Shown piece by piece: positions 1,385 to 56,455 of a stretch of 64,000 bases of DNA. The DNA lies in assembly GCA_034780895.1 (NCBI GenBank), contig JAUZTB010000069.1:16423866-16487865 (forward strand). The letters run 5' to 3'. A model generated the notes under the pieces. It saw only the letters and a program-made list of their open reading frames with translations. It was not told where the DNA came from and ran no database searches. The first letter of the stretch is position 1; every line of letters starts with the position of its first letter. This stretch comes from Rhynchobatus australiae. Lineage: Eukaryota. The position numbers and the translations under genes were made by a program.

Positions 1385-1552
<168 letters not shown>

Positions 1553-6902: not shown

Positions 6903-7151
<249 letters not shown>

Positions 7152-8236: not shown

Positions 8237-8415
8237 CTGTTGTTGTCGTTGGAACCTAGGCGGCAGGGACTTGTGGAACTTGCTGTAGTTCTGAATTGGC
8301 AGTGTAGGCTCATTTCCCTGCGTGTAGTTCTCATCATCGCTTTCAGCACTGGCTGCAGGAACTTCTTTTTTCACCTTGTCCTCGGCAGGGAGTTCCACAG
8401 GCAGCTCACGTTTTT
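8237..8415 (-). CDS. PRRC2B: PRRC2B exon 13
   Basis: YSKFHKSLPPRFQRQQQ, conserved motif; phase 1-0. Confidence 0.93.
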
Positions 8416-9398: not shown

Positions 9399-9851
<453 letters not shown>

Positions 9852-9919
9852 CTACTCCAAAACTCAAGGCAACCTGAAACAAACCCACAAATATGTAAAT
9901 CTTGAACAAACCTTCAAAT

Positions 9920-10480
9920 TGTTACAAAGGGATGGGGTATAAAAGTAGGGAGGTCTTTCTACAAATGTAAAGGACACAAGTCAGACCACACCTAGACAAC
10001 TGCATACAATCCCACTCAACTTATTTAAGGAGGGATATGCTTGCATTAGAAGCAGCTCAGAGAAGTTTCATTGAGTTGAATGCAGGGATGAAGGGCTGTC
10101 TTATAACAACATACAAATAAGCAGGAATAGGCCACTGCAGGAATAGGCCACTTGGCCCCTCAGGCTTGCTCCGCCATTTAATATGATTATGGCTAAACTG
10201 ACTGTAACCTCAACACTCTATTCCCATCTACCCACAGTAACTTTTCACCTCCCTGCTTATCAAGTATCTAGCTACCTCTGCCTTGAAAACATTCAAAGAC
10301 TCAACTCCACTGCCTTTGAGTAAGAGTTTTCAAATAATCATGACCTTCTAGGAGAAAGGTTGATCAGCTTCAGAAATAGAGGGGGCCTTATTGAAACATT
10401 TGGAAGATTCTTCTGCCAGGATCTTAATGCTTCCCGTCATGGAGCCGGGGGCATAGTTTCAGAATAAAGACATTTGAGCA
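9920..10480. mobile_element. Nested CR1-clade fragments in PRRC2B intron 11
   Basis: gtcagaccacacctag...gcagctcagagaagtttca on + with an antisense tail gcaggaataggccact..ggcccctcaggcttgctccgccatt. Confidence 0.55.
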
Positions 10481-11766: not shown

Positions 11767-11941
11767 CCTCGTCTCAGCAGAGTTTAAGCTCCAACGTGGC
11801 TCAGCATCTTGAAGGCCATGGCTTGGCTGGCTGGAAGGTAATCCGTTACCCCAAATGGATTCAGCACAAATGGAAGGTTCCACCTTTGCTTCAAGCTTAG
11901 CATTTAAAGAGCGTTGGCGTACCATTTTCATATCCCTTTCC
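11767..11941 (-). CDS. PRRC2B: PRRC2B exon 11
   Basis: WERDMKMVRQRSL...SAETR; phase 2-0 fits both neighbours; donor AGG|gtattt. Confidence 0.8.
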
Positions 11942-12631
11942 CTAGATGGTATAAAGTATTTGAGTGTTAGTCTAATGCTTAAATGTCTATGTATATTCTG
12001 TAAATAACACAGCTCAAGCATAACTACCCCATTACAACAAGTGGTCCCTGATCACCATGAAAGATGCATTAATACAAATACCTGAAAAACAATTTAAAAT
12101 TTGTAAAGCACAATGGGAAAGTAACAGATGCAGAGCTAAAGAGGATGTGTATAAGGATGTAATTGGTGACATTATCCAGAGTTATTTCTGCATTGTGGGA
12201 AAGGGTAGAAGCTCAAGGTGATAAGCTTAAATGGGAATTAGGGTAGCAATCACCACAGTCCTGGGATGCAAAAATTATTAAAAATTTCAAGAGAAATGGA
12301 AGCTTTGGAGAAGGCATTATAATTTGAGGGGTAGTATTGATGTGGATTTAAAGGAAGGGGACAACTTCTGTGGAGAGGGGACAAGTGCATCATGAGGGTT
12401 GTGGTGGGGCCGTGGTGGTGGGGGTTGGGTGGATGGCAGTTTAGTACAGAAGGGGATAAGGTTGTATCTCATTTAATATTAAGTGTTCTGGGGTGTCCTG
12501 AGCTCACAAAGGCATCTACAGAAATGAAAACTAGACGAGCTAATGATCCAAGAACATTTATATTCACTGAGTTGTGAAGTTCACAAATAATCAAGGTTTC
12601 TGGTTGCACTAACTATTCAAGGGATACGCAC

Positions 12632-12719
12632 CATTTTTCTTTTCTCTCTCTTGAGATCTCTTCATCATCGTCATCACTGAATTTAAGTTTTTCTGAATAA
12701 TCCACTTCCTCGTGTTCAC
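12632..12719 (-). CDS. PRRC2B: PRRC2B exon 10
   Basis: EHEEVDYSEKLKFSDDDDEE, conserved PRRC2 motif; phase 1-2. Confidence 0.95.
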
Positions 12720-13230
12720 CTGATCAAAATTAAGCATTATTGGATAATGGATCAGAATCCTACTTCTCAGGAACTAGAAATCCAAATTCAAATATGCACA
12801 ACAAAACAAGGCAACAAAGAGAAGCTTGAACAATGTATATGAAGCACATTGCAGGAAAGGGCAGGAATTGTAGATATATTCAGAGACATCCCCAACAACT
12901 CATCAACAAATTTCAAATTGATAGTTAGCCATTAACCTTACAGTTGATTCAACAGAAAATAACATCTTAAGAATATAGCAAGACAATGGCTCTATATTTC
13001 TGAACAACCATGATGTTTTTACGAGAGTGAAGGAAAACTTTGACTGATAAAACAACTAAATTACCATCAGTATTTGGGACTTCTATCAACTCAAAGTCTG
13101 TTATCTACCTTGTCAATTATAATTTTTGTAATGACCAATATGGATTGCATTCAGTTTAATTAATAGATTTCTTTGTATTTTTGAACTAATCTGCCTTGAA
13201 ACAAATGGTTTAATTGTGCTACATTCCCAC

Positions 13231-13376
13231 CTGCCCATCCATCTTCTGTTTCAATGTCCAGCTGATCCAGTTCTTTCAGGTCATCAGGATTAATGATGGC
13301 AGGTCGATCAGTAGGCTCACCTGGTCGCCGAGCAGGCCTAACTGGGCGTGTAGAACGAGAAACTCCACGGGGATAT
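13231..13376 (-). CDS. PRRC2B: PRRC2B exon 9
   Basis: RPAIINPDDLKELDQLDIETEDGWAG, conserved PRRC2 motif; phase 2-1. Confidence 0.93.
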
Positions 13377-14567
13377 CTGCAGATAACCACAATCAGAATT
13401 AAAGGATGGGCCACATATACATCTTGGCTCCTGCTTCTTTACTACTTAGAGACAATAAGAATCTACAATCTGCAGTATAGGGAGAGCAGACTTTAAGGAA
13501 GCAGAAGTATCCAAGCAAGATCAGCACCTCACCACAGTGATCGATATTACTAAGAACAGAGCTGAGATTGAATGAACTATACTGTTTGGACAACTGCCCT
13601 TAAGTTTATGACTGTGCAGGTGTGCAGCTCAATTTAACATTTTATTTACGAATTTTCACTGTAATGCAATTGACTCTTTTTAGTACTCCCTCAAGTTACA
13701 AGGCTGTTTCACTGTAATGAACCATGCTTAATGATACAAATAAACTTCAAATTGGTGTCCCAAGCACCTGAAATCCCATTTCAGCGAATAGCAATCTTTG
13801 TTGACACATTTGCCTGAGAGGGGGTCAAGAATATGGAGGAAGAAGCAAGGAGGAGAAGGTGGAAGAGGAAGGGTGGGGCTGGGGCCAAGGCAGAGGGAAT
13901 GTGACGAGGGTGTGGGGAAATAGAGTGGGAAGCTGAGATTCACAGTTGGGGAAATGTGGCCAACAAGAGCTGAGGTTGTGGTGGGGGACAGAAGGATCAG
14001 AGATGGGACCTGACAAAAGGGATAGGAGACTAACAAGAGTGTGGTTTTTGAGAGGGGTGGGGGAGAGAAAGAACCAGTGAGAGCCTGGGGAAAGAGAAAG
14101 AGCTGGCAGAAATGGGTGGGGGTGAGAGGGGAGGAGGAAGTGCAGCCAAATCTGGTGGTGGGAGAAACAACCAGCAATACCACTTGATTATAAGATTAAC
14201 CTATTAACAAAAAGTCTTTTATTTTGGATATGTTTGTTGATTTTTTTTGGTTAAGGTGTTTTTGATCAAAATTCTTGAGTTCTAGATCACAGAGTTTTTC
14301 TCTGTTTAATGGAAAAAGTTTTTATTTTCACCTCATGCAATTATCTTCCAATAACATAACCCCTGCAGAAATTGAGGGAAGGCAATACAAATTTCATCAC
14401 AGAATATACTTTTGTATAACAAGTATATTTATATGGTTTAAGGGATAATCTAATTTTCCCAGTTGGAAATAGTTTAGAAAACCACAGATTACATTCCACA
14501 AAGTATTAAATGTATATAATAAATACAAACACACAAAATATACTGCAGAGATTGCACATTTCCTTAC

Positions 14568-14659
14568 TTAATTGGCTCAGGTGGCTGGAATGGATACTGT
14601 AAAGATCCCTGTGGACCAAGGACAGGGGTAGGTTGAGGTTGTGATGGTGGTGGGCACAT
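14568..14659 (-). CDS. PRRC2B: PRRC2B exon 8
   Basis: MCPPPSQPQPTPVLGPQGSLQYPFQPPEPI; ctacag acceptor, AA|gtaag donor; phase 0-2 links exons 7 and 9. Confidence 0.85.
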
Positions 14660-16385
14660 CTGTAGGAGAAAAGAATCTAATTTAGATACTGACAAGGGAA
14701 TTAATAGAGGGAAGTATCACTTAAGAACAAACAGCTATCACCATAACTCCACAACACCAAGTCATTCAACCATCTCCTCAATGAGTGGGAAGATAATCAT
14801 AGCATCCACCCACCCTGTGAGTAACACTACCTGCCCTCCTCAACCAACAATTGAACACCACCTAACCACCACAACCATCAAGAGTAACCCCATCCCGAGG
14901 AACCACCTCAATCCTTGTCAGGAAAACCCACCCGACTCTTCCAACTTGCCTGCCCCACAAGAGGGTACATGACCATGACACCTATCAAGAGTGACCATAA
15001 CTTTAAATCCAAAATAAAAACACTACTGGCTTGTCAGGAGAACGTAACCATGAGCATAAACATTATTCCCCTAACCAGCTGAGGAGGAACATCATCCTAA
15101 CCCCATGAGGGAGAATATATTCCTGACTCCACACGAAGGAACAAACTTAAGGTCAAAGATGAACAGAGCTCTAAATTCAAAAGAGAAAACACAGCAGTGA
15201 CTCACCAGAAAACCATACCTTGAATCACATGAACCCTACCTACTGAGAATATAACCCCATTCCCAATGGTTGAAACACCACGATTCTTCTCCCACCCTAC
15301 TCTAAGAGTGAACATCCAACCGCATTAATCTCCACAACACATCATGTAAGGAACTAGCACATTGATTGAAAGTAAGTATGTGGTACACCAAACCAAAGAG
15401 AAAAATAATAAATCATAAACTCACAGGGCAAAAGAATCTTAACAAATTATGAAATAAATGCAGAGAAAGAAGTTCTTGAAACATTGCAACTTGTGTTTGT
15501 AAGAAAATTGATTAATTAAAGCTTTAAGACTATTAAAGAAAACATAGGGCTCGTTTACCGGGGGTACTAAGTTCAAGACAAGGACAGTAACGAAAAGACT
15601 AAAGGTTAACAGTACTATCCCACCCCAAAGGTAAAAATTGAGAACTGAGTCATGACCAGATTTAAAAGACTATAAGTTGAATCTGAGAATAAATCATCAT
15701 TTCAGAAATTGGGTAGTCAGAATTAAACCATCAAGAGCAAGTGGGACCCAGCAGCCTTTTCCTAATTCCCAAAAATATTTAAAGAATCCCTAAAAATAAC
15801 TCATGCTCTGTAATTGAAGAGTAACTGTAATGTATCATCCATCTGAAGTGATAATAAGCATCAGGTGGAAAGACATTTATTTTAAAACTGTTATCATTGT
15901 TTCTGGGATTCCCTAACATAAGCAACAGGAATGGAATAGGAAACCTCTGCTCGTGATGCCCCAGCCATCATGAACTCGATGGGGCAGCTGGTATTTTCTT
16001 GCCCATCACTTATTTTGCTTATATCTGTAGATTTTATAAATCCTGTCCACTCACTTTTATTTGTTTACTCACTTGTCAAAAAAATCAAAATAGTGTTTTA
16101 CGTAAACACTTTTCATTCGATTACATTGTGCCAACTATCATAATTTAGCNNNNNNNNNNNNNNNNNNNNNNNNNNNNNNNNNNNNNNNNNNNNNNNNNNN
16201 NNNNNNNNNNNNNNNNNNNNNNNNNNNNNNNNNNNNNNNNNNNNNNNNNCAACTATCATAATTTAGCCACAGCCCTAGACAACTTGTTGCAAGTTTCTGA
16301 ATTTTTTCCAGCTCCATTGCAATCTTACATACATTAACACAAGTTGTTCGTCATTGGTAACTTAGAAGATCTGCAATCAACTTAC

Positions 16386-16633
16386 AAATGTAGGCAGCAT
16401 GTCACGGTAAGTGGATGGGAACTGGTGAGACCCAGTCTGCAGCAACATTCCTGATCCTCTCCTCAGTGGAGTAGCAGGCCTTAGGGAAGGTTCCTTTTGC
16501 TCATTTGATGACACTGGTACATTTACTGGATCATCTTGGCCTGAGCTTTTGACTTCCACTTCTGGTGGTGACGTAGTTGATGTTGCTGTGGGATTTAGGT
16601 TTCGACCACCACCCTCCCTCCAAATGGCGACAT
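16386..16633 (-). CDS. PRRC2B: PRRC2B exon 7
   Basis: NVAIWREGGGRNL...EPSLRPA...TYRDMLPTF; phase 1-0; donor TTT|gtaag. Confidence 0.93.
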
Positions 16634-17846
16634 CTGCAAGAGAAAAGATAACAAAACTGCTGAGTATGGATTTCAAGCCTAAAATGTACTCAATAAAATA
16701 AAGAGTTCCCAAACAGGATGGCAATTAAGCCATACTACTGTGATTATATTTTGAGGTCACAGGACAAGCCAATTACTTTACAAACGAATTACGTTCATTT
16801 TACCTATGCAGGCTAGCTTTCCGTAAAAGAATCACTTAGGATAGCCTAGATGTTTTCATTTTACTTGTTAAGATGAGAAATACTGACCTCAAAGTAACTA
16901 GATATGACAATGTCTTCACAATTTAAATATTCAATTCTAGATTTCTATATCTATAATTCTAAAACTGATTTTGCATTAATGAAATAGAAATGTATCACAG
17001 GTGAATATTTCTCACCTATTCAAGCTGCATTTTACACATCAACAGCAAAATACAGCTTCACTAGAAAGTAATTCCATATTTGCACATTAGTTTCATGTAC
17101 CCAGCATCAACCAACTTTATTCAGATTTATTTAAAACAACTGGACCTAATTTCCAACTGAGGGATCAGATTTGTTTGTTCTATAAGGAACTAGATCTGTG
17201 GCTAAATAAACTACACCATTCAAGAAGGGAATAACAACAGGGTTAAATTTTGTTCAACCTATATAAAATGTGCATCTTTTAGAATATTTTATGAATTAAA
17301 GCAAATTTGATGATCTTTAGTGGAGGGGTCAAACTTTTGAATTCTAATTATTCTGAAATTCCAGGCTTTAAAAAAAAAATCAAAATTGGCACTAGACACT
17401 CATCTCTATATAAACAAAACAGCAAAATCCTGCTGCAACTGTGGTTTAAGTCAGTAAAACTACCATACCATCATGTAGGCAGCACAGTGGCACACCTAGT
17501 ATAGCTGTTGCCTGACAGCTCCAGTGATACACATTCAATCCTGCACCCTGGTGTTGAGTTTGCACNNNNNNNNNNNNNNNNNNNNNNNNNNNNNNNNNNN
17601 NNNNNNNNNNNNNNNNNNNNNNNNNNNNNNNNNNNNNNNNNNNNNNNNNNNNNNNNNNNNNNNNNGGTGTTGAGTTTGCACATTTTCCCTGTATATTTTA
17701 GAAATTGAAGGTAATATTCTTCTTCTCTGTGGAATCTGAAGAACCCCACCCACCCCCATACTCAGCACTTTTTCAAGCTATGCAGACCACAAAACTTTTC
17801 CAGTACATGTCTGTATGCACACAAGCAGTTTCAGTTTCTCCATTTA

Positions 17847-36800: not shown

Positions 36801-39180
36801 TAACTACTNNNNNNNNNNGCTTTGTGGTTCTCTCCAAAAGGAGCACTATTCCCATTCCTATGCCAACTAACTACCAGAGAACCAAATAAATACCTTGCTG
36901 AAAGACAGAACTAAACACATTAAATCTTTTATCACAAAATCCTGAACCCACCTCAAAAGGCAAAGCCAACCATCCCCCACAATGGGTTGAAAGTAAACCA
37001 GATGCCACCCATATCCCCCCCCCCCCATACCCCTACTGAGAATGAAGTGGGACACACCCAGGTTGAGGGTAAGTCAGGCAAGCTCTCCTGACAAAGGGGA
37101 AACCAGGCACACCTCTCCTGGGCCAGTGGTAAAAAAGANNNNNNNCACCAAAGTCAAGAATAAATGAGACTGCCACCAGACACCTTCTTTCTCACATAAG
37201 AGGCAAACCAGACCCCTCCTTTCCCACCCCACCCCACCAATCCATAGTCAAGAGTAAACGAGATACCCCCTAACTCAGAATGAGGATAAACCAGATGTCC
37301 TGCTCCCACCAAACTTGTAAATGATAAATCAACAGACCATCTTCCCAGGTTCAAGGGTAAATTGAATGTGCACAGTTTCATGTTATGGATAAACAATGTG
37401 CCCCCAGTCAAGATCGAACCAATGGAGTCAGCTTCAGATTAGGACAAATTAGGGTGGTGGGAAACTAGGCATCTGCATTTGTCCAGGGTTAGGGGCACAC
37501 ATCCTGAAGTCCCACATCCTCCCAGAGTCAGTGGATGCCCAGTGCAAGGATGAATAAGACATCCCTCTGACCCCAGGTTTGAATGTAGACTGGACACACC
37601 TCCCACCCTGAATTTGAGATTTATAAAAAGACACCTTCCCATTGTAAATGCAAGCTAGACTCTCACCAACACTGGGCAATTGCTACTTCCCGTCATCCTA
37701 GGCTAACGGTAAACTAAATTACCCCTACCAGCTAAGGGTAAACCAGATGACCACTTATCCCTGATCAAATGCAAGCTAGAAGTCCACCACTTTACATCAT
37801 GGCTACAAGAGGTGCCCTCCAAACCAGATGCTCCTCCTTGCCCTTGCTCAGAGGTATATGGATGCCCACAATCACTATTGATGGTTGTCAAAATGCTCAG
37901 CAACCCCCACCTCCGCCATGTCAAATTAGATACCCTCCGATCCTGGACTCAAGAGTAAACCCATCGCTGGTCCACAGCACATCACACACTCACCATTTCT
38001 GGCAAAGGGTATACCACACTACCCCCAGTCAAGACTAATGGTACATGAGAATGAACCACCTCACCCCCCCCCCCCGCTGGGTTGCAGACACACCAAAATG
38101 CCCCACCATTGGGTAAAAGTCACCAGGTTAGCCTGTTATGGGTACAGATACATGATGTATCTCAAACTGAGAGTACACTGTACCACCCCAGCATAGGATA
38201 CGCCAAGGCGACCCCCATCTCAGATCCAGGGTACACCAGACGATTCCCATCTCGGAGTGAACATAAATCAGACACCTCCCTCCGGAGTTAATGAAAACAC
38301 TGTTGTAAGATTAACCCTGACGAGTCCAAATCCCCAAGTTCCATGGTCAAGTATAAGGTGAGCACACCTTTCCCTCCCATTCCCATCATACAAAGTGCAC
38401 AAGGTCCTCAATTGGTAAACTAGACACCCCCCTCCTACCAAAATATACAGTAGGTACCTTCTCCTGGATTGAGGGTAAACCAAACCAATTCCCAACCTTG
38501 TTTGATGGTAACACGGCTAACCAACCACACCGGTCACCAAGAGGGAAGCAAACATCACCGCATCCCGGTGCAGATTCAACCAGACACCCGCACTCCAAGG
38601 ATTCACCAGACGGCGCCTAATCTCCCAGTGTAAACAAAACACCGCCTCCCAAACCCCCCCCACCCGGGTCACCATCATTCCCCAGCCCCGTCACCATCAT
38701 CACCCCTATCGCTCCAGAATAAACCAAACACCCCCCTCCCACCCCAGGTCAAAAGACAACCCCCCCCCCGAACGGGAGCTCGCCCCTTCCTCCCTCCCGG
38801 GACGCTCCGACCCCGCAGGGTTGCAGTGGGAGGCAGGGAATGGGAGGTCCCAGGCCCCCAGGAAGGTGAACCCTGGACCGGATCGGGAGGAGGGCCGGGC
38901 TGGGAACCCCCCCCAGGGTTTAAGGTGAACCCCCCGCCGGGTCCGGGATGCACAACCGGTGCCCCGGGCCAGCGACTCGCCTCGGGGTCAGGCCGGCCCG
39001 CAGCGGCCCTGTCCGCCCGGGGGTCCACCGACAGGACCCAGCGGTCGGCCCGGTGTCCACAGCCGCCCTCCGCTCTACCCAGCCCGGGATATCAGGAGGG
39101 AAAGGGGCCGACTGTCCGCTGCCTGGGTCCCGGGACCTCCCCCCGCCCTCGCTGCTCCGTTTTGTGGGGAATCGGAGGCA

Positions 39181-39191
39181 AAGATGGCGGC
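39181..39191 (+). promoter_or_regulatory. YY1 consensus site AAGATGGCGGC at the start of intron 1
   Basis: Exact match to the YY1 consensus about 65 nt downstream of the exon 1 donor. Confidence 0.55.
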
Positions 39192-39255
39192 CGGATGCCG
39201 CCGGGAACAAAGCGGGAGAAAACCTCGGGATCGGAACCACGAAAAGGCCCTTTAC

Positions 39256-39440
39256 CTCAGAAATACCGACCTCGGCTCGTTCCCAGGGCTTCCTCGGCCT
39301 CAACTGCAGCAGGAAACGGGGATCGGTGCCGAACTACAGCCCGATGGAGGCGGATGGAGAAGGATCCGGGGCCTAAGCAAAAGGATTGAAAAGAATCCGA
39401 CTCCGGCCTCGTAAACCGGGCTCAGAGACTGAGCCTCCGC
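39256..39440 (-). other. PRRC2B: PRRC2B non-coding exon 1 (5' UTR); TSS approximate
   Basis: Strong donor TTTCTGAG|GTAAAG on the minus strand (intron begins 39255) inside the CpG island; no ATG seen in the exon; the only CpG island upstream of the ATG exon. Confidence 0.7.
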
Positions 39441-39682
39441 GCCGGGACGGCGCCTGCCGACGGCCCCCGGAACTGCAGGCAGGGAAACGGCGCCGGGGTG
39501 GCACCTGGTGGCAACACAGGGAACTGCACCCAGGGAAACGGCGCCTAGTGGCAACACAAAGAACTGCACCCAGGGAAACGGCGCCGGGGCGGCACCTGGT
39601 GGCAACATAAAGATCTGCAGCTAAGGAATCAACACTGAGGCGGCACCTGGCGGCTGTACAGAGAGTTCTACCTGGGAAACAG
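39440..39682 (-). repeat. Tandem array of ~51-bp GC-rich units (cluster 1) abutting the PRRC2B promoter
   Basis: agggaaacggcgccggggYggcacctggtggcaacacagggaactgcaccc repeated about 5 times with one shortened unit; agggaaac at 39481 and 39532 gives the period. Confidence 0.85.
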
Positions 39683-41344
39683 TAAATGATTTTTTTTAAA
39701 CTGCAGGCAGAAAATCTGAAATAAAAACAGAAAAAGCTCAGCAGGACAGCCAACATCCGAAAAAAGAACATCAGAATTAGCGTGTCAGGTCTGAGGCCTT
39801 TCGTCAGAACTGAAAAACAGAGAAAACGAGTTAGTTTTCAGAAGCAGAGAAGATGGTTACAACAAAGGGAATGTATATGCCCTGCTCTGTATCTCTTGAT
39901 ATATTTCAAAAAGAGAACAAAAATAAAGTATCAGAGTAAACTTACATGGAGTGTAAGAACAGACTGTGAAAGATTCTACAAGTGTGTAAGAAATGTGAAG
40001 AAATTTAGGCCCCTTGGTTTGAAATGAAGCATGAAACCTCTTTGCATCCTCATAACTATTCACGTTCCCACCTGAGTCAGCAGCAGACTCAGAAATGTTA
40101 CATTTCAACCAAATTGAATTCTGAACAGTCAGATCTCTATTCCCAGCTCATCACATGTGGAGATCGCATTTTTCCTAATCTTTGTTTTCTATGTTAACCA
40201 GCATTCAAATCATGCTAGGATGTTACCCCCAAAGCCACGTGCTGTCACTTACTTGAGTAATGGGACCTTATCAATAAACTACTGAAAATCCAAATGCACC
40301 ACATCCACTGGTTCCCATCCACTCCACCTGTACATCCTCAAAGAACTCCAGTACAGTAGCTGAACATTATTTCCCTTTCATTCATCCATATTGACTATGA
40401 TCAATGATCATTTTACTTTCTAAATGTCTGTTTCAGGCTCATTAATTTCTCTATAGTAACACTAATTTCTTTAACTTCCTCATTTGCACTGACATTTTAT
40501 TCTTCAGTACTTCTGAAATTTTTTGTATCATTTTCCATGAAGGCAGATACAATGCATCAGTTTAATTCCTCTGCTGTTTAGTCATTCTCCATTAGAAATT
40601 ATCCCATTTCCATCTTTAAGGATTCTGCATTTGCTCTTGCTGGTCTTTACTTTTATCAATGCCTACAGAAGCTCTTACCAATTTTTTTTGTTGCTAGTTT
40701 ACTCTTTCTTTATCAATTTCTTGATCATCCTTTACTGAATTCCAAAATGCTCCCACTCCACAGGCCTATCACATCCAGAGAAACAGTGCCAGAGCAGCAC
40801 CTGTGGTGGTACATGGAACTGAGCCCAGGGAAACAACAGCAGGTTGACAATTGGCAGAAGTTCAAGGACCTGCAATAAAAAACGAAAGTACTGGAGATCC
40901 TCGGCAGGTCAGGCAGCATCTGTGGAAAGACAACAGAATAAATGTCTCAGATCGATGACTTTTCATCAGAACTGGAAAAATGAGAAAAACAAAAATGTTA
41001 CAAGTTGCCAAGAGCAGAAGAGGTGAAGAAAATAATGAGAATGTGGTAGGGTGGAGATCAAGGTTGTCCAGGTGCAGGAATGCCATTGGCACTCGGCAAG
41101 AGAGTGTGACAAATGCATGTAAATCAATGCTGAGCCGTCTGGAGAAGTGCAAGTAGAGAGAGATGAATGAGGGCAGTGGAAAGAAATGAAATGTTGGAAC
41201 TGTGATGTGCAGAACATGGACCAGTCATCAAACTCTGATTCACTCTGCACTGATGCTGCTTAATCTGCTGAGGATTTCTAACATGTTCTGTTTTTATTTC
41301 CTTTGTTCATTTTCTGTAGAGTATTTTTTTCTTGAATTAGAAAG

Positions 41345-41590
41345 ACCTGCATCCAGGGAAACAGCGCCGGGACAGCACCTGCCGGCGATACAGGGAGCTT
41401 GCACCCAGGGAAACCGGCGAAGGCAGGGATACCTGCACCCGAGGAATCAGCTCAGGGCAGCACCTGCTGGCGGCACCTGCTGGCGGCACAGGGAACTGCA
41501 CCCGAGGAATCAGCGCCGGGGCGGCACCTGCTGACGGCACAGGGAACTGCACCCGGGGAAACAGCGCCGGGGCGGCACCTGGCGGATAAA
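41345..41590 (-). repeat. Tandem array of the same ~51-bp unit (cluster 2)
   Basis: gggaaacagcgccggggcggcacctgctggcggcacagggaactgcaccc-type units about 5 times; one decayed unit at ~40778-40840. Confidence 0.85.
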
Positions 41591-42799
41591 TGGGGAGCTT
41601 CAATATGTGGATTGAGGTAAATCTCACCATTAAAAATCGCTTAACTTCTGACATACTTTCACTAGCGGACCGAAAATTCCTCCAATTAATATTTTCGTTT
41701 GTTTATAATCGTCCCAGATCTCTATTCCTCCGAGAGACGCGTAATTCTGCCCTCATGTGCAATCCCCACCTCCATCCCCCAGCCCCAGGGCTTTGCTGCC
41801 CAGCCCCAGCGTCGGTTAATTCGGTGTCCTCCTCTCCAGCTTCTCAACACCAGTTTCTACCCAGAGCCAAGCTGCATCTATGTAAAACCTTGAACTTCTC
41901 ATAAATGCCTCCAGAACCAAACTGGGCGTTCTTAATTGCTTTATTGGGGCTTACTATAATGTCAAAGCCAAAGTACTACAGATGCGGGAAATAGTTGTCA
42001 AGTCAGGCAACATCTGTGGAGAAATAAACAAAGGTAATGGTTCAGGTATTTGAAGGGCCACCGATCTGAAACAGTGACAGCTCTCTCCAAAGATGCTGTC
42101 TCTCTGTTTCTCTTTTATTTTTGCTTAATTTCCTTGCACTTGTATTTTCCTCTGATAATGAAATCCAGAAACGTGTATTCTTCTATTAATAGAATCATTG
42201 GACGAATCTTACTGGTTGTGGCTGTTCTTCTTTGAACTGCTGATAGTCAACTGTGTCTACACAAGCAAGCCCCAGATTTACATGGGCCCTCTGTAGGTCT
42301 GAGACAAACTCACTGACAGATACCACTGATCCTTCACCGTCAGAGGCGGGAAATGACTGAAGACCCCGCTCATTTCAATGGATATTTTCAACCTGGTGAA
42401 TGGGAGAGGTAGGCAATATCATTTAAAATATTTTATTTCAATCTAATGTTTTTATTGATGTGTAAGTATGTTCACGTGTTTTAATAACTTTAATTTTTCA
42501 TATAGTTTTTATAATTTCTTCAGTTTTCATAGTTTATAAATGTCCTTGAGTATCAGAGATATTTAAAAAGTTTAAAATTGCTTTGAAGGTTTTAGCAGGA
42601 GATGATGTTCCAGTCCAGGTTATTCCTGGGGCAGGTCCTCAGAAATGGCTGCCTCAGGCCTTGCTACCAGTTGGCAAAATCAGCTCTTTGCATCTGGCCC
42701 AGCTTCAGTTTTTTCTGAAATTCCATTGATGATGGTTAAGGATCAGTGTTAACAGTGATGAAATATTCTGTTGTTATTTCCAATTGTTGGCATTTCCTC

Positions 42800-43250
42800 A
42801 GCAGATATTTGCAGTGTCAGTATTCCCAGTGCTGATACTCTCAGTTGTTTGATTTACCAATGCTGATATGCAATATATCATCATTTTTATTCCCAGTATT
42901 AATATTGCCAGTGATAAACTTACCAGTGCTGATATTCCCAGTTAGTGTTTCCAGTGCTAACACTCCCAGTTTCAATGTTTCCGATACTGATATCCCTAGG
43001 TTCACTGTTTCTGGTGCCGACACTCCCAGTGATAGTATTTCCAGTGCTGACATTCCCAGTGTCTGTACCTGCAGTGGTGGCACTCCCAGTGTCAGTGTTT
43101 CCTGTGGTGACACTCCCAGTGTCAGTGTTTCCTGTGGTGACACTCCCAGTGTCAGTGTTTCCAGTGGTGATACTCCCAGTCTCAGTGTCTGCAGTGGTGA
43201 CACTCCCAGTGACAGTGCTTCCAGTGCCGGTACTCTCACTGATGATATTC
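42800..43250. repeat. 30-bp minisatellite with 15-bp sub-period
   Basis: cactcccagtgtcagtgtttcc(t/a)gtggtga repeated about 10 times in register, decaying leftwards. Confidence 0.9.
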
Positions 43251-44429
43251 CCCATGGTCTTTGATCCTCTTTCAATGACTTAGTAATTGATACTTTGCTG
43301 CTTTTGTCCTGTTTGGGTTCCAGAAATCCATGAAAACAAACAGTTTGAATGAATTCAAATCTTGTGCAGGCTGCCTCCCATGATCGTTAAATTATACATG
43401 GGGCAGGTGAGAGGGGTTGGCACCCGGATTGTAATTTCAGCCGCCCCATCCTCCCACCCTCCACTGACCTTTGGTTTAGTATTTCCTCTCTGCCTCTTGT
43501 AAAATCAGTCACATTTAAACTACAACCAACTGTCACGCAGGCTGGGCAAAGATTAAATAAACAGAAAGAATATGAGAGGCTGCTGGAAAGTAAAAGCTAA
43601 TGATACTTGGGAGCCCAGAGGGTTCCACCCCTCCACCGCGCCACAAAATCTACCATGCATCTTGGAATCGGCTGAGCATTCTGCCTGTGTCCACCAGCCT
43701 TTGAAACCTGCCTCAGTGGGAGAGCCCTCAGCCTCTGTCAGCAGCTCCTGCCCACGGCCCAAGGTAGCCAAACCTCCAGTCTGGAGTCTCCAGGGATCGA
43801 AGATTATTTCCCAGGACGCTGCTCTGAGCAATACCTGAGAGAAAAACCATCCTAGAATTAGAACAACCCCATCTTTAAAAAATATATTAGAAATATTAAA
43901 GAGTTCTGAAGATTTTTGTTTATTGGTCATGAAAGTAATGGACGTGGGAAAAGGAAAGGCCTTTTGACGTACAATCAATAATCATCAATTTATGATGCAA
44001 AGAGGCAACTTTCCTTCTAATTGGCCATGGGAGGACAAGCTGTGGTGATGGACGTGTTAGGTGACCAATGACAGGGATATATTGGTGGAGCTGTTGGAGA
44101 CGTGAAACCTTCAAGAATATGTCCAACCAGAGTTGGTAAATATACCCCTCCTGAAAACCCCCTTGGGGTAGTTTGCTTTGCAAGAGGTATTAAATAAATG
44201 TGAGATATTGTTGGAAAGATTCTGGCCTCCAGTCAAAGCAAGTTTGTTCATTGTCTAAACCCTCAGTGTATAAGTTCCCTTTATATAGTGGAGCTCGCTG
44301 TGTCAGCCTTTGATCAGAAGACATTCCAGAGACTTGAGCACACAAACTAGCAAAAGCTTTATGAATATTACTGAAGACGTGTAGCAGTTGCAGTTCATAA
44401 CCAGTGAGGAAATGTCTGCCTTTTCAGCT

Positions 44430-46680: not shown

Positions 46681-48494
46681 NNNNNNNNNNNNNNNNNNNN
46701 NNNNNNNNNNNNNNNNNNNNNNNNNNNNNNNNNNNNNNNNNNNNNNNNNNNNNNNNNNNNNNNNNNNNNNNNNNNNNNNNNNNNNNNNNNNNNNNNNNNN
46801 NNNNNNNNNNNNNNNNNNNNNNNNNNNNNNNNNNNNNNNNNNNNNNNNNNNNNNNNNNNNNNNNNNNNNNNNNNNNNNNNNNNNNNNNNNNNNNNNNNNN
46901 NNNNNNNNNNNNNNNNNNNNNNNNNNNNNNNNNNNNNNNNNNNNNNNNNNNNNNNNNNNNNNNNNNNNNNNNNNNNNNNNNNNNNNNNNNNNNNNNNNNN
47001 NNNNNNNNNNNACCTCAGTAATTGTAGCAGGTCTCTAGGATTGTGCTGGAGCGTGTAGGGTTTCCTGGTATACGCAGGCAGTTACACTATTTAACCGTCA
47101 GTGCATTGCACTCATATCCAAGCCTGAAATCAAGACTTCGCACCCCCTCCTCACCACCACCAACCAGTAGGTGGGAGTGAGCAGGAATGAAACTGCTGAT
47201 TAGTTAGCCCAAGGAAACACTGAAGTCAATAACAATTTCTGATACACTTTCTCAGTCACCTCAGCACAGACTTGAGAATCAAGCCACAAGACACAGCTGG
47301 CTGAGTTTTAATTTACAAAAGATATATGGATGACATGTGCCTGTGTTTTCAAATAGACAGGAAAATGAGAACTGTAGTCATCTACAGTGGATGATGTTTT
47401 ATTACGCAGGGAACATCTTCACTGTCCAGATGAATAGCTTCTCACATTAGCATTTATGTTAGCATTTATATGTTAGCATTTGTTATCATGTTAACATTTA
47501 TATATTTAAATTCTTGATCAGTGTGGGGCCTATCAATGTGGAAAACTCCAAGCTCTCTGCGAAATGTTTGAAGACAGTGTGACATTGTGTACGTTCCTCT
47601 CTCTCAGAGAGAGCTCTGGTTCTTTTCAAAGCACAGTCACCCAAAGGCTGGTTTCCTGTTTCCTACCAAACACTTTCCTTTAATAAGTTTTCAAAATATA
47701 AACCTGCTTTATTCCACAATGGAATCCTGGACAATCTCTTCCCTTCACTAATTCCTGGCCCAGAAGGGCTGTTCCTCTCTCACCACCAGATTCTCTCTCA
47801 TCCCATCTTCCGAGTTGGAAGTTCATGGGCTCAGCTCCCAATCCAGACTCTTGATCACAATCCCCAGGCTGAAAATCCAAGTGCAGTACAGAGAGTGTGC
47901 TGCTCTGTTGGAGGTGCCATTTTTCAACCTGCTCTTGACGCGTGAAAGATCCTTCAACATTAAACTGACCAAGAACATGAGAGATCTCCCCATTGTCCAG
48001 AGGTTAATATTTAATCCCTCAACCACATCGACAAAGCAGGTAATCTGCCTGTTAACTTGAGTACAGCCAACTCCCACTGGAGTTAAGTGTCACAAATCTA
48101 TGCTAACAACAGTATTCCAAAAGTACTTCACGGCTGTAAACTGCTTTGGAACATAATGAGATGTGCAAGATATTATGCAAATTAAAATCTGTTGTTATGG
48201 AAGTAACAGTTAATGACTGCATACATTTTCCATTAAATCTTCCTTGTGGCAAATTTTAAAACTCTGCAGTGAAGTAAATGTGCACAGTTTAATTTTTGTA
48301 CAATAACACCTAAGAAGACTTTTCTCTTCCCAGACTATGAAACTCACACCACAAGTTTAAATTTGGAAAATACCTTAGATTGCCAACTAGCTCCCCACAT
48401 TAATTAACACGAGGGGGAAGGAGTGTGAAATTTGACAGATACATTCCTTATTCCACCACACAAAGCAAAATGTCCTGCAGTTCCATAGGTAACT

Positions 48495-48780
48495 GCTGAA
48501 GGACCCTCAGGCAGTCCCTCAGAAACAAGGATAATTTACTTCCATTCCAATTCTGTGGGCTCTAAGGTCAACGTGGGAGCCACAGATTTTGTAACCTGAG
48601 CAGGAGATGCTTGGTGGAGCAGGTGGGCTGTTTAGGAGATGGTGCTGTCCCGCCACTTTTTATGCTAGACTTTTGTGTGCTCCCAACACATGGAGTTGAC
48701 GTCCTGAATGCCACTTGTCTACTTGGTTTGATTGTCCTGCCAATAGATTTAGAGAATTTTGCAGAGACAGCGTTGGTTGT
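48495..48780 (-). mobile_element. RTE-like LINE 3' fragment
   Basis: Tail agaattggaatggaagtaa..tccttg..gagggactgcct matches the tail of the 30.9-kb copy. Confidence 0.55.
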
Positions 48781-49429
48781 ATCTCTGTAGTACTTTGAGA
48801 TGCCTCCTGTGGATAATCTAAGTCTAGTAGGGCAGGGATCACTGCTGATCAGTAGACCATGACTTCTGGACTATGAGGTGATAACCTTCAAACAGTCTTT
48901 TCCTCAGACCACAAAGGTTATGCTGGTGCACTCAAGGTGTTGAAGAACTTTGTTGTTGCTGTTTGCCTTCACCAAGAGATGGTTCCTGAGATATGATAAA
49001 TAATTATTAAAGCACTGTATCAAAATGGTATAGATGTATAGCAAGGACTGTGTGAATTAAGCAATGTAGTTATGAACCATTGCTTAGATGTTGGCTAGAG
49101 CTGTCTACCCATCCTGGCACCACATTTTAGGAAGGGTTGTAAGGCATGAGGGAGTCTGAAGAGAAGATTTATGGGAATGATACCACAGCTGAGAAATCTT
49201 GAGATCAGAGAAGGTTAAAGGAAGATTTAATAGAGACAAATTTATCAGAGACTTTATAAAGAAGTTAGGATTTAGAAACAGGCAGAAAGGTCAGTATCAT
49301 GATGACACAGATTAAATCTTATGGGGAAAAAGGTCCAGAGGAAATTTGTCTTATCTACCCACTGACTTGTTAAGATCTGGAAAGGGCAATGCAGTAGATT
49401 CATTATATCTTTCAATAGAGAAATGGGTT

Positions 49430-49770
49430 GCATGGTAATATAGCAGTCAGCACTGGTACCTCAGAGCTCCAGGGAGCTGGGTTCGATCAGTACCTTGGGT
49501 ACTGTCAGTGTGGAGTTTGCATGTGTTCCATGTGACCTCATAGTTTTCTTCCCATGTCACAAAAGAAGTGCTGGTAGGTTAGTTAGCTACTGTAAATTAC
49601 TCCTTGGTGCAGCTAATTGAAAAAAGAATCAAGTTGATGGGCATGAGTCACAGGGAATATGTTGATGGACTACAAGGAAATACATAGAAAGGCTGTGGAA
49701 TGGATGGGATTGCTCTGCTAGGAGCTGGCATGGACCCGATGGGCTGAACGACCTCCTTCAGTGCTGTAAT
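49430..49770 (+). mobile_element. Degenerate V-SINE
   Basis: cctcagagctccagggagctgggttcgatc..tgtcagtgtggagtttgcatgtgttcc..gagctggcatggacccgatgggctgaacgacctcc; related copies at ~17480-17700 and ~35030-35330. Confidence 0.6.
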
Positions 49771-52765
49771 AAGTGTAAATACTTTTGTAGAACCACAGGG
49801 TAAGAAGAGGAGCACTGGAGATAATTGGACAGCTGTACAAGAACCATACATTCTATGCAGTATGGTTCTTGATGTTATGAATTAAGAGTTATCAATTGGA
49901 GTGGTCCTATGAATAATTGAAGTGTTATTAAAAATTAATTCCCAGGTTGTATGCATCATTGGCAAGGCTGACAGACTTTGGCCATCACTTTTCATTCTTG
50001 AGGTTATGCTGGGCCTTTGTAAGAAAGCCCATGTACATGCCGGATTAGGAGGGTTTTTTAAATTTCTAACACAATTGTGGATTTTTACTATGGCTAGACA
50101 TACTGTGAACCAGAACATGAAGTGTCAGAGAACAACTTAGCTCACTGTAGTGTAGGCTTCTACTGAAAGCTTAACCCATCTGAGCAGAGGTAGTCAGAAA
50201 TTGTGAAGTGAGATGAGCCAGGGACAAATGACGGAGAGCAACATAGTGAACTCAGTGACCAGTTTCATTTTGTGATGATAAACGAGTCAGCATCTGGTGT
50301 TTTGTAGGAACTACCTCATTACAGGGATGCTTTGTACAGGATAACTATATCAGGACATAATGAATCATCTTGGATACTATGTGCATGGCTAGAGACCTAT
50401 AAACATTTTAAGCTTCCCTTCGTGATTTATAGAGATGAATAACAAAAGACTCAATAAGGCTTACAACACCACCGAGACACAAACTACTGTAACTGTACAT
50501 CTATTGCTCAGAGACAATGGATGAATCAACAACTTGTTGAACACAAAAAGTTGCCAATCCTTTTTAGTTGTGCGGTTGGAATTCTCTTCTGCCTTATTCA
50601 GGAATGCTGCGATCAGTGTGCTGAAGAAACAAATGCAGTTGTGTTAGAGAGGGAATTCCAGGATTTTGACCCAATGACAATTGGTCAATGCATATCCAAA
50701 TAGGAATCATGTGTAAGTTGGGGGAAACCAGAGTGGAGGTGATGGTGTTGGTACATCAGCCTTTGTACAAAGCCTTTGTACTTTTTAAGTGAAGGAAATC
50801 TTTGGTGTGGTTTGAGAGAGGTTAGTTTACACTGAAATTGCTTTACTTTCAAAACTGCTCCACGGTCTTGGGTGACCTCCAACTAGCCAGCTTGGTGATA
50901 CTTGCATCGGTACAGCCACCACACAGATTTGCATGAATGACAGAGGGGTTGTGATGTGCTGGATCCATGGCAGGAGCCATCAGCTGACCAAGGTAACATT
51001 AGTGTTCAGCTCCTAACAGAATGGCCTGAGGGTCCAGAGGAGCAAGAACATCTTCNNNNNNNCCCCCCCCCCCCCCAAGCCTCACTAATCCTGGCCTCCT
51101 GCACAGCAGGTCTTACTAGGACCCCCTGTAAAGCCTTCTTCCCACATATCCTGCCCACAGATGCTCCTGCCAGTTGCCATGTTCCTGCTCTCAGCTTCCA
51201 GTCAGGCAGGCAGAGGACCAGCCAAGAATTCTTCAAACAAGGTCCTGATGTCATAATGATAGGAGACCTCCAGCTTCCCTGTTCCCTTCTTACTTCCCTG
51301 TTAACATCAGGGCCAATGAAAGTGGGACACCAAAGACAGGCAATGTAGTTTCAGCCTGCTGGCTCTGTCTAGTAAACAGTAAGTAAATCGTCAACCACAA
51401 TCTTCTGGGATGTGTACTTAATAACCTTTCTGATGAAGAACAATGGCAGGAGGGAGAAAGTTGGCTGAAATGGACCTTTTATCAAATTTACAATTCAAGT
51501 CACACTCAGTCACTGTCTGTACAAGTGGTGACTTCTCAACATCACCCACCAGTCAGAAGGAGGAGAAAGATGGTCATGGCTGTAAACTATTCATGCAGTC
51601 ATCCACCACCATTAAAGATTTAGAAGACAGCATGTGTGTGTTCTGAAAAAATCCTCTGCTCAAAATAAATCTCGGCATCTTAAAAAAAGACTCACATGTA
51701 TATGTGACCTCAGAATGTCCCAAAGCACTTTACAGTCAGTGAAGTACTTTTTTGAAATGTGGTCACCTTTGTAACGTAGGAAAGGTAGTAGCCAATATTT
51801 GCACAGCAAGCTCCCACTAACAATAATGTCAAAACTCCTCAGCATAGAAGGAGAGAACAAAGATAACAGATCAGTGAAGATTTTGGTGTGTTTGAGTCTC
51901 TCCCACACCTACCTTAGGAAGGGAGCTGCCAATGTTGGAGCTGACCAATGGAAGACACTGCACTCCTGGGCTGATGGCTCTTCTGGCCTGCCTGCCCTCG
52001 CTGTGGGGAAATGCTTTACCCTGCTCCAGGCCTATGCTGAGGCAATTGAAATCAACCAGTAACCATGTGGATGACTTGGTAACTCTGTCTGGATGATTTG
52101 TGAGAGCTTTTGTTACATGACTTCCTGCTCCAGCCATTGGTCAGCTGACACGTCCATTCTCATAAAGTACCAGTCAGAAAGTGACCAGAACTGTTATCTG
52201 ATGATTCTTGAGTCAATTTATTCTCTTCAATGTATTTCTCATTATTACTTTGTCTGATTTAACTGTCAGAGGAAACTCCAGGCCAACCTTGACAGTTAAC
52301 AACCTTACCAAAGGTGCAGCAAACCCAGGTCTTTGTTGTGCCCTGATGGGGCCTCCACGTGCTGCCCAGAGGTCCCTCAAACTTAACATGTTCTTTGATT
52401 ATCTGAGGCATGAGTTGGAGCAAGTTGGAGCTGCAGATTTGGGGCTGAGGACAGAGCTTCCTTTGCAGTTCTTTTTCTTCAGTAATGCGGTGGTTGGTAA
52501 TTTCACTCTTTGTAGGTTAAGTAAACGTGACAGGAATCCATTTTGCATCTACAAATTTCCAAAAATTGTTCAGCAGTTTGATGAAAGCAATATAATGAGA
52601 GTGTTTGTCACTTTTCTCAAATTCTGAAACAACAGAGACCTCAACCGCTCAGCCTTGCATTGTATATTATGTCTTTGGAGAATTCAGATAGACAAGCATG
52701 CTCGGAATCTGGAAGAACCCAACATCTGAACTGAATTGCAGTTTAAATTGTGAGAGGTTAGTCTT

Positions 52766-53095
52766 AGAATCATAGAAAGTACAGCACAGTACAGGCCCTT
52801 CGGCCCACAATGTGCCTACCTTTAAACCTCGCCTAAGACTATCTAACCCCTTCCCCCCAACATATCCCTCTATTTTAAATTCCTCTATATGCCTATCTAG
52901 CAATCTCTTGAATTTGATCAATGTACCTGCCTCCACCACCACCCCAGGCAGTGCACTCCATGCCCCAACCACTCTCTGGGAACAAAACCTCCCTCTGATA
53001 TCTCCCTTGAACTTCCCACCCATTACTTTAAAGCCATGCCCTCTTGTATTGAGCATTGGTTCCCTGGGAGAGAGGCACTGGCTGTCCACTCTGTC
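52766..53095 (-). mobile_element. CR1-clade LINE 3' end, relatively intact
   Basis: NTRGHGFKVMGGKFKGDIRGRFCSQRVVGAWSALPGVVVEAGTLIKFKRLLDRH is the typical CR1 ORF2 C-terminus, followed by the gggccgaagggcctgtactgtgctgtac tail. Confidence 0.85.
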
Positions 53096-53509
53096 TGTGG
53101 GAGTGGGTGGAGGGGAGGCTTGTGCTCATTAAATCAATGCGTAAAACTCACTGAAGAAGGTGGATGAGGTTATAATGCAGAGCTGCTTCGAACACTGTAC
53201 ACAATTGTAATCCACCAGGAACTTCCCTAGTTCTGCAGTGCAAGCCATGTATTCAGGACAGGCCTGCAAAGGGTCTCACTGTAATACACGAAGGAAAATG
53301 AGAATGTGCGAAGTCCATGCAGATGGCACCCAAGCTCAGATTGAACCTGGGTCTCTGGTGCTGTGAGGAAGTGGCATCACCAGCTGTGTCACTGGGCTGT
53401 CCCAAGAGGAGGGCTTGTAAAGGGGGCAGTATCCCATCCTGAAAAATATGGTCACATGATTATAGAAAGCCACATCTGAAGGAGAATCTTACAGCACAGG
53501 AGCTGGACC

Positions 53510-53726
53510 ATCACCAGTTGATCCTGGTTGCATCACCGCCTGGTATGGAGGCTCCAATGTGCAGGATCAAAGATGCTGCAAAGCGTTGTAGACTCATCCA
53601 GCTCCATCACGGACATCTTCAAGAGGCAGTGCCTCAGGAAGGCAGGATCCATCGTTTAAGAACCCTCACTACCTGGGACATGCCCTCTTTGCATTACTAC
53701 CATTGGGGAGGAGGTACAGGAGCCTG
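53510..53726 (+). mobile_element. Rex1/Babar-like LINE fragment
   Basis: Remnants GCITAWYG...LRKAGSI...GHAL..LLPLGRRYRSL, typical of the Rex1/Babar C-terminus. Confidence 0.55.
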
Positions 53727-55206
53727 ATTTTAAGAAGGAATTTTGAGGAGAGAGTTGAAAGTGGAGAGATTTAGGGAGGGAATTTCATGACTCAGCTGAG
53801 GCATGGCTGCCAGTGGTGGGATGAGAAAAGTCAGGGATGTGCAAGAATCCAGAATTGGAAGAGTGCAGAGATCTTAAAGGATCGGGCAAGTTTACAGATA
53901 CAGGGAAGGCCAAATGCTGGAAGGTTTTGAGCAGGTGAATAAGAACCCAAAGCATTCCCAGTCCAGTGGGAACATAGGTCTGTATCTGCAGGATTGGCAG
54001 TAAACTCGTCTTGATCAGATTAAGGGCAGCAGAGTTTCAGAGTAGCTCATGTTTGTGGTGAGTGGGAAGTGCTTGAAGATAATTTTAGCAGCACTTTAAC
54101 TGACCGTTGGGCTGCTTTGTGGAGTGTTTCCACCAGGCACTGGCTGATATGCCTGTTTTATTTTTTTTATCCAGTGTTTTGTTTTGATCACATTGTACAA
54201 CTATAACGGTAATCAATGCAAGCTGTAATTTACTGTTAGGACAAGGGAGGCAATTATGTTCCATAATAAACTGTTTCAAAAATAGTTTGAGATCTTTTAT
54301 TTTGTAAACCATCTTGGTGCAAAGGCAGCCTTAGACTTTTCCAACGCTTGTACAATAAACTCTTGTGCAGATTGCTTGAACCTTGATTAGCAGACTGAAT
54401 ATTCTGAGGTGAAATGGTTTCCATACAAAAAGCTCTGAAACTGAAGCCTCAGTTTGTGAGATTCAGCATTTATTATCCTGAGGCATGGCAGTAAGCCATT
54501 TTCTTGCCCTGCTGTGGCTGTGTGGTGAAAGCAGCTCCGTGATGCTGCTGGGCAGGGACTACTAGGACTCTGATCCATTGGCAGTGAATGAATAGTGATG
54601 TATTTCCAAGTTGGGATGGTGTGTGGCTTGTGGAGAATCCTAGAAGTGACGGTATTCCCATGCAGCTGAATGTAGAGAATGGCAGGGGACTGGTTTTACT
54701 TAATTGGGTGAAAGATCGAACATAGCTCCATCTGAAATCTGAGGTCACTATTTTGAACGACTGCAGTGAGTTATTCCCTAAAAACAATTTCTGTATTGCA
54801 GTTTGTGGGAATTTGCTGTGGAGAAATGGCTGCTGCGTTCCCTACATTGCCCTGGTGAATCCACTTCAGAAATTACCTGTTCTGTGAAGTGCCCCAGGCC
54901 ACGCTGAGGTGGGGGACAGTGCTTCAGAAATGCAAGTTCGTTCTTTCTTTAGAAGCAGGAAGTTCTCCTTGTGTCCTTACCTTAACCACCAACACCATCA
55001 GAGGCAGACCAACTTGTGATTCAGATTACTGCTAGTGGACTCAGCTCGGACAGTGGCAGTAACTGTTCTTAAAGGCAATTCCTTGGCACGCACTTGAGAA
55101 CTTTCTGAGGCACATAATAAGTTGTGGTACAACTGCATAAACTAGAATGCAACCAAAGCTTTATATGAAAATAATCAACCCAATATCATTACAGAATACA
55201 AATGCA

Positions 55207-55212
55207 TTTAAT
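55207..55212 (-). terminator. Candidate PLPP7 polyadenylation signal ATTAAA
   Basis: ATTAAA about 0.9 kb after the coding exon, followed by T/GT-rich sequence on the minus strand; an AATAAA near 55545 is an alternative. Confidence 0.4.
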
Positions 55213-56098
55213 ACATTAAGATTATAAACAAAACCAATCATGCTTATTCCAAGGAGTTACATCATTCCAGTCCTTTCACAAATCCCAGTCACACTTGTGC
55301 CACTGAAGTACATCCCCCCTGCCCCATTCAGTAAGGTTAAGTGGCAGCGAACAGCATTAATACATCTCATTCACACCATTTTATGGCTTTTGGATCACAG
55401 CTGGCTTGTGACGGTCATTGGGCTGGATCCAGCTGTCTTGGTGTGGCCACTGGTTTGGGAGCAGTTGTTCTATGGGAAGCCAACATCAATACTTTGAACT
55501 CAAGCCCAAGTACTACATATGATTTTAAATCCATGATGATTATTTATTTATTCATTTACTTGCAAGTTACTGGGCGATAACATACCATGTTGACAGTAAG
55601 AGATGGCAAGAACAGCTAGTTTTTGAAGTCAGTGGGAAATGATAGCATCCTTCCCACATTTCTACTAGTTGAATGTTCCATCATTTCTTATTAAACAGAC
55701 TCTGACATCCTTCATTGGTATTAGAAGTCTCATTCATTGTCTATTGATAAGTTGAAGGTTATGTGATATTGGCAGCCAATGCAAAGCCCCCACCACCCAC
55801 CCACCCCCACAACCCAGCTAACCTTCATAACAAGCAAATCTTTTGAAATTTCAAATGCAATTTTCAAAAGTTCTATCTTCTAAAGAATCTAAAAGGCAGA
55901 AACGTCTTTCACATTTCCAAAAATGAATTAACGACGGGCTGTATGAGGCACATTCTAGTTCCACCATTTCACCAATGGGGGTACCTGTGTCCTCCCCACC
56001 CTGCATCCCACTTCCACCGCCCCCATACCCGTCTCTTATCTGCTTCATCCTTGCAGCTCCAATGTTTGTCATATCGGAATCACTGATGCCAGTAACTG

Positions 56099-56455
<357 letters not shown>

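Follow-up and report, generated by a model that had tools for sequence, protein, structure and literature searches.

Nonsense variants are common in individual human genomes and occur disproportionately at coding sequences' 3′ termini, according to Jagannathan and Bradley (10.1101/038687). The gene studied here, PLPP7 (Net39) of the ray Rhynchobatus australiae, resembles the natural C-terminal variants of that report in that its stop lies in the last exon with only a few percent of the CDS left to follow, in that the rest is intact, and in readthrough as a possible partial rescue; it differs in that one sequenced ray individual is concerned and that the removed residues are deeply conserved. 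The Ir75a pseudo-pseudogene of Drosophila sechellia, as described in PMC7244557, likewise has a lineage-specific premature stop in a gene that is intact in relatives, within a permissive context older than the stop. Full-length protein was demonstrated there, whereas ray PLPP7 is known from sequence alone and its stop lies just 10 codons from the end. The six bases past the ray UGA fit the CARYYA (TMV-type) readthrough motif (PMC4132726), but here they are inherited Gln-Leu codons, with no conserved UGA and no new extension, and readthrough would restore the ancestral end only. Vertebrate selenoproteins (PMC3316567, PMC13134290) share with this locus an in-frame UGA aligned to the Cys of homologues, and a SECIS is stated to be required in every eukaryotic selenoprotein gene (PMC3316567). 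In contrast, the ray UGA occurs in no relative that was read and is accompanied by neither a credible SECIS nor a redox site, and the PLPP family is absent from the text of a 2026 survey of 19 vertebrate selenoprotein families (PMC13134290). Compared with PLPP7/Net39 as described in PMC7846557, the ray gene is the same in its two exons, its inactive PAP2 motifs and its position adjoining PRRC2B, and different in its predicted product of 260 aa instead of 270 aa.

The window, i.e. the whole stretch of 64,000 nucleotides that was analysed, includes the last exon of PLPP7 and, as its neighbour, PRRC2B. The gene holding the in-frame UGA has a Pfam PAP2 match, and its top named matches are ray PLPP7 proteins (89-96%). 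The nearest named protein is PLPP7 of sawfish (Pristis), with 8 differences over 270 positions. Sequence, inactive PAP2 motifs, the two-exon structure and synteny with PRRC2B all identify it as a PLPP7 orthologue, and contig records of both genes agree in 8/8 species with such data. A PLPP6-like paralogue on another contig (C76) retains the catalytic motifs RP and PSGH. The parts of the gene are the following.

56069-56439, minus strand: second and last exon of PLPP7, with its coding part as far as the ancestral stop, placed by the AG acceptor at 56441-56440, the PAP2 match and contigs of relatives
G000:C69:16506520-16506981, minus strand: PLPP7 exon 1, beyond the window, ~26 kb upstream, open, with 94% identity to sawfish
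55154-56068, minus strand: 3′ UTR (minimum extent), from a spliced contig of run X17 that covers 55154-56440, with AATAAA at 55552 and ATTAAA at 55212

The exon 1-2 junction is seen in contigs of runs X11 and X17, which depart from the window at 56440 into exon-1 sequence. Both spliced contigs of these relatives, followed from this junction through the 3′ UTR, are free of any exon joint after the TGA. Apart from this TGA the reading frame is intact, with exon 1, an ATG start codon, a GT donor and an AG acceptor, and without a frameshift. The exon is present as a single copy in the genome assembly (G000), in which a second or haplotype PLPP7 copy with TGC was looked for and none was found.

An earlier reading of this DNA, made from its letters only (the sequence-only reading), gave the minus strand across the site as TGG CTA CCA TCT GGT ACC TGA CAG TTA CTG GCA TCA GTG ATT CCG ATA TGA, and this is confirmed. 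Continued in frame, the translation is WLPSGT, stop, QLLASVIPI, stop, QTLELQG, stop, SR, stop, the last stop being TAA. The premature TGA lies ten codons, or 30 nt, ahead of the normal stop.

56099-56101, minus strand: premature TGA, codon 261 (Cys, TGC, in relatives), with TGA in the window and run X1 and TGC in X2, X3, X11, X16 and X17
56072-56098, minus strand: nine codons QLLASVIPI, lost along with the Cys, with the same residues closing PLPP7 of Narcine, Hypanus and Hemitrygon
56069-56071, minus strand: ancestral stop codon (TGA), at which 9/9 aligned batoid proteins finish, all 270 aa

The sequence-only reading had described two further in-frame UGA codons followed by UAA. The frame is as it stated, but the second UGA marks the end of the batoid orthologues and does not count as a further stop for readthrough. 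Since ray orthologues finish there, the conservation downstream of the premature UGA, which had been offered as a signature of recoding, represents inherited coding sequence, namely the normal end of the protein in relatives.

The alignment of the UGA with a conserved Cys, also proposed earlier, is borne out. The protein set comprised 171 sequences (the best 120 of 233 matches listed, cluster members and 34 short proteins), and 166 of these have Cys aligned to the TGA, one (P0137) merely by chance alignment of an unrelated tail. The remaining five are two PLPP6 paralogues, with Leu at the position of Cys261, and three shark models that end or diverge earlier, at WIPS(G). Cys261 and Gln262 are invariant in an alignment of 103 sequences. 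No ray protein fragment ending at the premature TGA occurs among the 34 short-protein matches, and when the exon-2 peptide was queried in three versions for exact matches in the protein collection, 0/3 were present. Because a selenocysteine could appear as Cys in protein databases, DNA is the decisive part of the evidence. As a separate observation, the models P0133, P0134, P0137 and P0139 (zebra shark, epaulette shark and one shark-like) lack the Cys-Gln tail, three of them ending or diverging at WIPS(G) and one at GFFIG; these models could reflect an alternative last-exon donor of carpet sharks or an annotation artefact.

Eight of the 20 sequencing runs listed were compared with the window as contigs, and six of them cover codon 261. 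Run X1 (organism A) has TGA at a contig depth of 6.8 and shows no difference from the window in 3 contigs and 968 bases; matching letter for letter, it places the base in the reads but is probably the source of the assembly and thus not an independent individual. TGC is found in 5/5 related organisms with coverage, in runs X2 (organism B), X3 (C), X11 (D), X16 (E) and X17 (F), although the TGC of X16 is called at depth 2.3 and that of X2 lies 26 bases from a contig end. Organism E differs from the window at 3 of 303 bases compared (depth 2.3-2.8), and the presence of TGC in this ~99% identical relative marks the change to TGA as recent. Codon 261 lies outside the coverage of X14 (second organism-A sample, depth 3.3) and X20 (organism G). 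The TGA is therefore private to this organism or individual, and the headline of the sequence-only reading, selenocysteine recoding or programmed readthrough, is not upheld; that reading had itself named relatives keeping Cys as the outcome that speaks against it, and this is what the DNA comparison found. Two minor features of the contigs were also recorded. The X3 contig (organism C) carries two 1-nt deletions in the PLPP7 exon-2 CDS, at window positions 56360 and 56385, in or beside base runs, while the near-identical contig of organism D has just one gap across 55824-56395, placed in the UTR by depth; the two deletions are probably homopolymer errors. Run X20 shows zero differences from the 3′ UTR of the window over 217 nt (55374-55590).

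Taken at this locus, the pattern is most probably that of a real, young TGC>TGA nonsense allele (C261 to stop), with a protein 10 residues short and some accidental readthrough. A recent TGC/TGT>TGA truncation had been the third option of the sequence-only reading, and with TGC in 5/5 relatives it is the best fit. A stop derived from a sense codon, the lack of a downstream junction (as seen in contigs of relatives) and an intact ORF are what is expected of a last-exon nonsense allele, and each is found here. As a mechanism, one base change would have turned Cys codon 261 in the last exon from TGC to TGA, and most protein would end ten residues early. By the exon-junction rule of NMD a stop in the last exon, here 30 nt before the normal stop, should escape; with no junction left downstream of it, the PLPP7 mRNA would be expected to evade NMD. 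Near-cognate tRNAs (Trp, Cys, Arg) may give ~1-15% full-length protein, as a by-product and not as selected recoding, because the inherited CAG-UUA context is leaky. Against this interpretation it counts that CARYYA follows just 7 of 1,486 ray codons, making the context a rare coincidence. Read in this way, the locus adds a single natural case to a familiar type of nonsense allele and matters little, except as a caution that in a single genome a fresh nonsense mutation looks exactly like a UGA opposite Cys with downstream conservation.

The lost segment lies outside the recognizable domain. The PAP2 match finishes at residue 249, ahead of codon 261, and the YodM/PgpB structure, its only relative in the PDB, spans positions 174-253 and leaves the tail out. 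In the structure predicted for the sawfish orthologue, which is of low confidence (mean pLDDT 49, tail ~65), residues 258-267 form a helix that follows the last long hydrophobic one. The truncated product is predicted to keep the whole PAP2-like membrane core and to lose a 10-residue putative C-terminal helix. Homozygous Net39 knockout mice are reported to die as juveniles while heterozygotes are normal (PMC7846557), which favours a heterozygous carrier. Given the invariance of Cys261 and Gln262 and the lethality of Net39 loss, a fixed truncation is unexpected unless the tail is dispensable or the stop is read through. We estimate it somewhat more probable than not that the allele is heterozygous in this individual; contigs drop alleles, and run X1, available as contigs only, is for that reason silent on zygosity. 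Should the allele turn out to be fixed and homozygous, the ray would offer a natural experiment on the need for the invariant C-terminal Cys-Gln helix of Net39 or, alternatively, a naturally occurring example of accidental readthrough rescuing a vertebrate gene.

Spread of the allele in a lineage with loosened constraint on PLPP7 is possible, at a little under an even chance. Since the split from sawfish, PLPP7 has accumulated 7 changes on the branch of the window (N6T, H33Q, Q50P, G158V, K166R, V179M and the stop) versus 1 on the sawfish branch, while in the neighbouring PRRC2B exon (717 sites compared) there are 5 on the window branch versus 12 on that of sawfish, and 2 ambiguous ones. The branch split differs between PLPP7 and PRRC2B (Fisher p = 0.011; 0.023 without the stop), although this weak excess of amino-acid changes in PLPP7, being post hoc and set against one control exon, is no more than a hint. 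Two of the lineage-specific changes are located in exon 2.

56408-56410, minus strand: G158V, with Gly in organisms B-F and in 117/132 proteins; X14 (depth 3.3) has the same residue as the window
56345-56347, minus strand: V179M, with Val in organisms B and C; X14 has the same residue as the window

A nucleotide test for relaxed selection in exon 2, based on a list of differences lacking one row, points in this direction too: the window branch carries 3 non-synonymous changes and 1 synonymous change, compared with 1 and 10 private to organism B or C (p = 0.033). Without the stop it weakened to p = 0.093, and with K166R counted on the other side to 0.063 and, again without the stop, 0.15, so that the trend is not significant. 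Wholesale pseudogenisation of PLPP7 was considered and rejected: there is no frameshift, the splice sites are intact, and strict private substitutions number 2, compared with 1-12 in 19 other chondrichthyan proteins.

The context of the stop and its potential for readthrough were then weighed. The leaky UGA-C context pointed out in the sequence-only reading holds and is stronger than stated there, comprising a full CARYYA hexamer. The 8-bp stem that it described also exists, beginning one base after the UGA and including two G-U pairs, but is within chance expectation.

56093-56098, minus strand: CAG TTA hexamer, encoding Gln-Leu and fitting the CARYYA readthrough motif as given in PMC4132726
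56078-56097, minus strand: weak 8-bp hairpin, -6.7 kcal/mol, z = -1.06

Organism B has no difference listed at 56098-56074, and C, D and F have CAA for CAG, which is still CARYYA. Being present in relatives that encode Cys, the hexamer is inherited and was not built for readthrough. The 7 occurrences of CARYYA among 1,486 ray codons examined include that after codon 261. As an element promoting readthrough or selenocysteine redefinition the hairpin was rejected, since 21/200 shuffles fold as well and it is not kept in a 102-nt fold. In three windows of 3′ RNA structure z was -1.06, -1.54 and +0.72 (the last for the 102-nt fold), so that no stimulatory structure is indicated. Of the features that define programmed readthrough, a leaky context is found here, but a conserved stop and a constrained extension are not, the downstream codons being ordinary CDS in relatives. 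With conservation of the UGA failing, PLPP7 belongs to neither the selenoprotein nor the programmed-readthrough class.

Published reporters give a range for such contexts: placed in the OPRL1 context, UGA-CAAUUA was read through at ~15% (PMC4132726), and in COS-7 cells UGA-CAG at 1.49% (PMC5829715). Residues inserted at UGA readthrough are given as Trp, Cys or Arg (PMC4615788), so part of the readthrough product would be wild type. Accidental readthrough yielding ~1-15% full-length protein is a reasonable inference, a few percent being plausible.

Unlike the young nonsense allele outlined above, a pseudo-pseudogene would have the TGA fixed in the species and tolerated because the inherited UGA-CAG-UUA, perhaps with the hairpin, keeps PLPP7 working by readthrough. 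We regard this as improbable. The exact match to CARYYA with the ~15% value for UGA-CAAUUA (PMC4132726), the rarity of the context (7/1,486 codons), the possible insertion of Cys (PMC4615788) and the loss of highly conserved residues from a gene that is essential in mouse (PMC7846557) would all agree with it. However, the context is older than the stop, leaving no sign of adaptation, and the motif tested was CAA and not CAG; UGACAG alone gives the 1.49% quoted and is an ordinary human terminator, with which 183 of 19,549 human genes naturally end where 144 are expected (PMC5829715). Fixation of the allele would furthermore have to be presumed, and the weak excess of changes in the upstream protein fits relaxed constraint better than rescue. 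If true, it would be a vertebrate pseudo-pseudogene in which the invariant Cys261 of Net39, a muscle-essential protein in mouse, was replaced and rescued by a pre-existing CARYYA.

It is equally doubtful that the TGA is a sequencing or assembly artefact, the animal having TGC and the A stemming from library damage or a low-depth miscall. The assembly is fragmented (81,522 contigs, k-mer depth ~7), the codon has no independent sample, and the change C>A belongs to the class produced by oxidative damage. Nevertheless, TGA is read both in the assembly and in the Logan contig of X1, which was built separately, and the two agree throughout the 968 bases compared, which makes the base-call error once listed among the options unlikely. 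In addition, the PRRC2B exon of the window stays open over 741 codons, and a neighbouring G>T change (G158V) is common to the second sample of organism A.

Bypass at the RNA level, through a cryptic donor a few bases upstream (PSG|GT) leading to another end or through A-to-I editing of UGA to UGG, is very unlikely. Three carpet-shark models (P0133, P0134 and P0139) do end or diverge at WIPS(G), but two spliced ray contigs show no joint or loose end at the site, and the cryptic donor matches the consensus poorly. As for editing, the short fold leaves the UGA's A without a pairing partner, and nothing stable forms over the 102-nt region. A mini-intron spanning the TGA was rejected, as its 11 nt would be too short and would shift the frame.

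A SECIS, which is marked by a GA/GA quartet, an apical AA and a stable stem, was searched for in several ways. Rfam models run over 48000-56200 with E up to 10 gave 8 matches, none of them a SECIS; in the control, one was found behind 1/3 deiodinase loci of the same genome, below the gathering score, indicating partial sensitivity. This control SECIS_1 (GUGA type; L011 1127-1193, plus strand, G000:C1 near 118511130; 28.5 bits, E 0.087) follows a deiodinase gene of one exon that contains one in-frame TGA. A genome-wide search with RF00031 returned no match anywhere, deiodinase controls included, and is hence uninformative. Our own pattern scan disclosed one strict candidate in the 3′ UTR.

55247-55292, minus strand: sole SECIS-like pattern in the 3′ UTR, rejected

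Its stem (at 55292) has -2.8 kcal/mol compared with -13.3 in the deiodinase control and is absent from the minimum-energy fold, and an equal or better match occurs in 45/200 shuffles of the UTR. The scanner also yields weak or uncharacterised matches in control loci, so that weight is given solely to the difference in energy from the real control. A literature search for PLPP7 with selenocysteine or with readthrough found no paper, and none on this allele either.

That this lineage converted PLPP7 into a selenoprotein, exchanging Cys for Sec and using a SECIS of the 3′ UTR, is extremely improbable: its UGA sits opposite an invariant Cys in a genome carrying deiodinases with in-frame TGA and a SECIS, and the survey cited above concedes that lineage-specific fish selenoproteins may have been missed (PMC13134290), but the UGA is not conserved in relatives (TGC in 5/5, one ~99% identical), no SECIS is found among the 8 Rfam matches (48000-56200) or beyond a chance-level pattern in the 3′ UTR, the protein is catalytically inactive and its Cys is not within the PAP2 domain, and PLPP goes unnamed in the text of the 19-family survey (PMC13134290).

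Several other features were observed in the same genome. Loci L007 and L008 (G000:C1:118510103-118510807 and 138611157-138611909) are deiodinase genes on one contig, each with an uninterrupted frame holding one TGA and each matching nearly the whole Pfam deiodinase domain. One of the two presumably corresponds to DIO2, by how it reads; DIO2 is a two-exon gene. Within the window, PRRC2B exons lie at 385-16724 on the minus strand, where other ORFs were assigned by eye only, and its open 741-codon exon at 5431-3209 (minus strand) has 97% identity to sawfish PRRC2B. Low-complexity, tandem-like repeats at 42840-43390 and 41340-41700 give long repetitive ORFs on both strands. The GC-rich segment at 38500-39800, with long ORFs in several frames, is likely a CpG-island promoter, probably that of PRRC2B.
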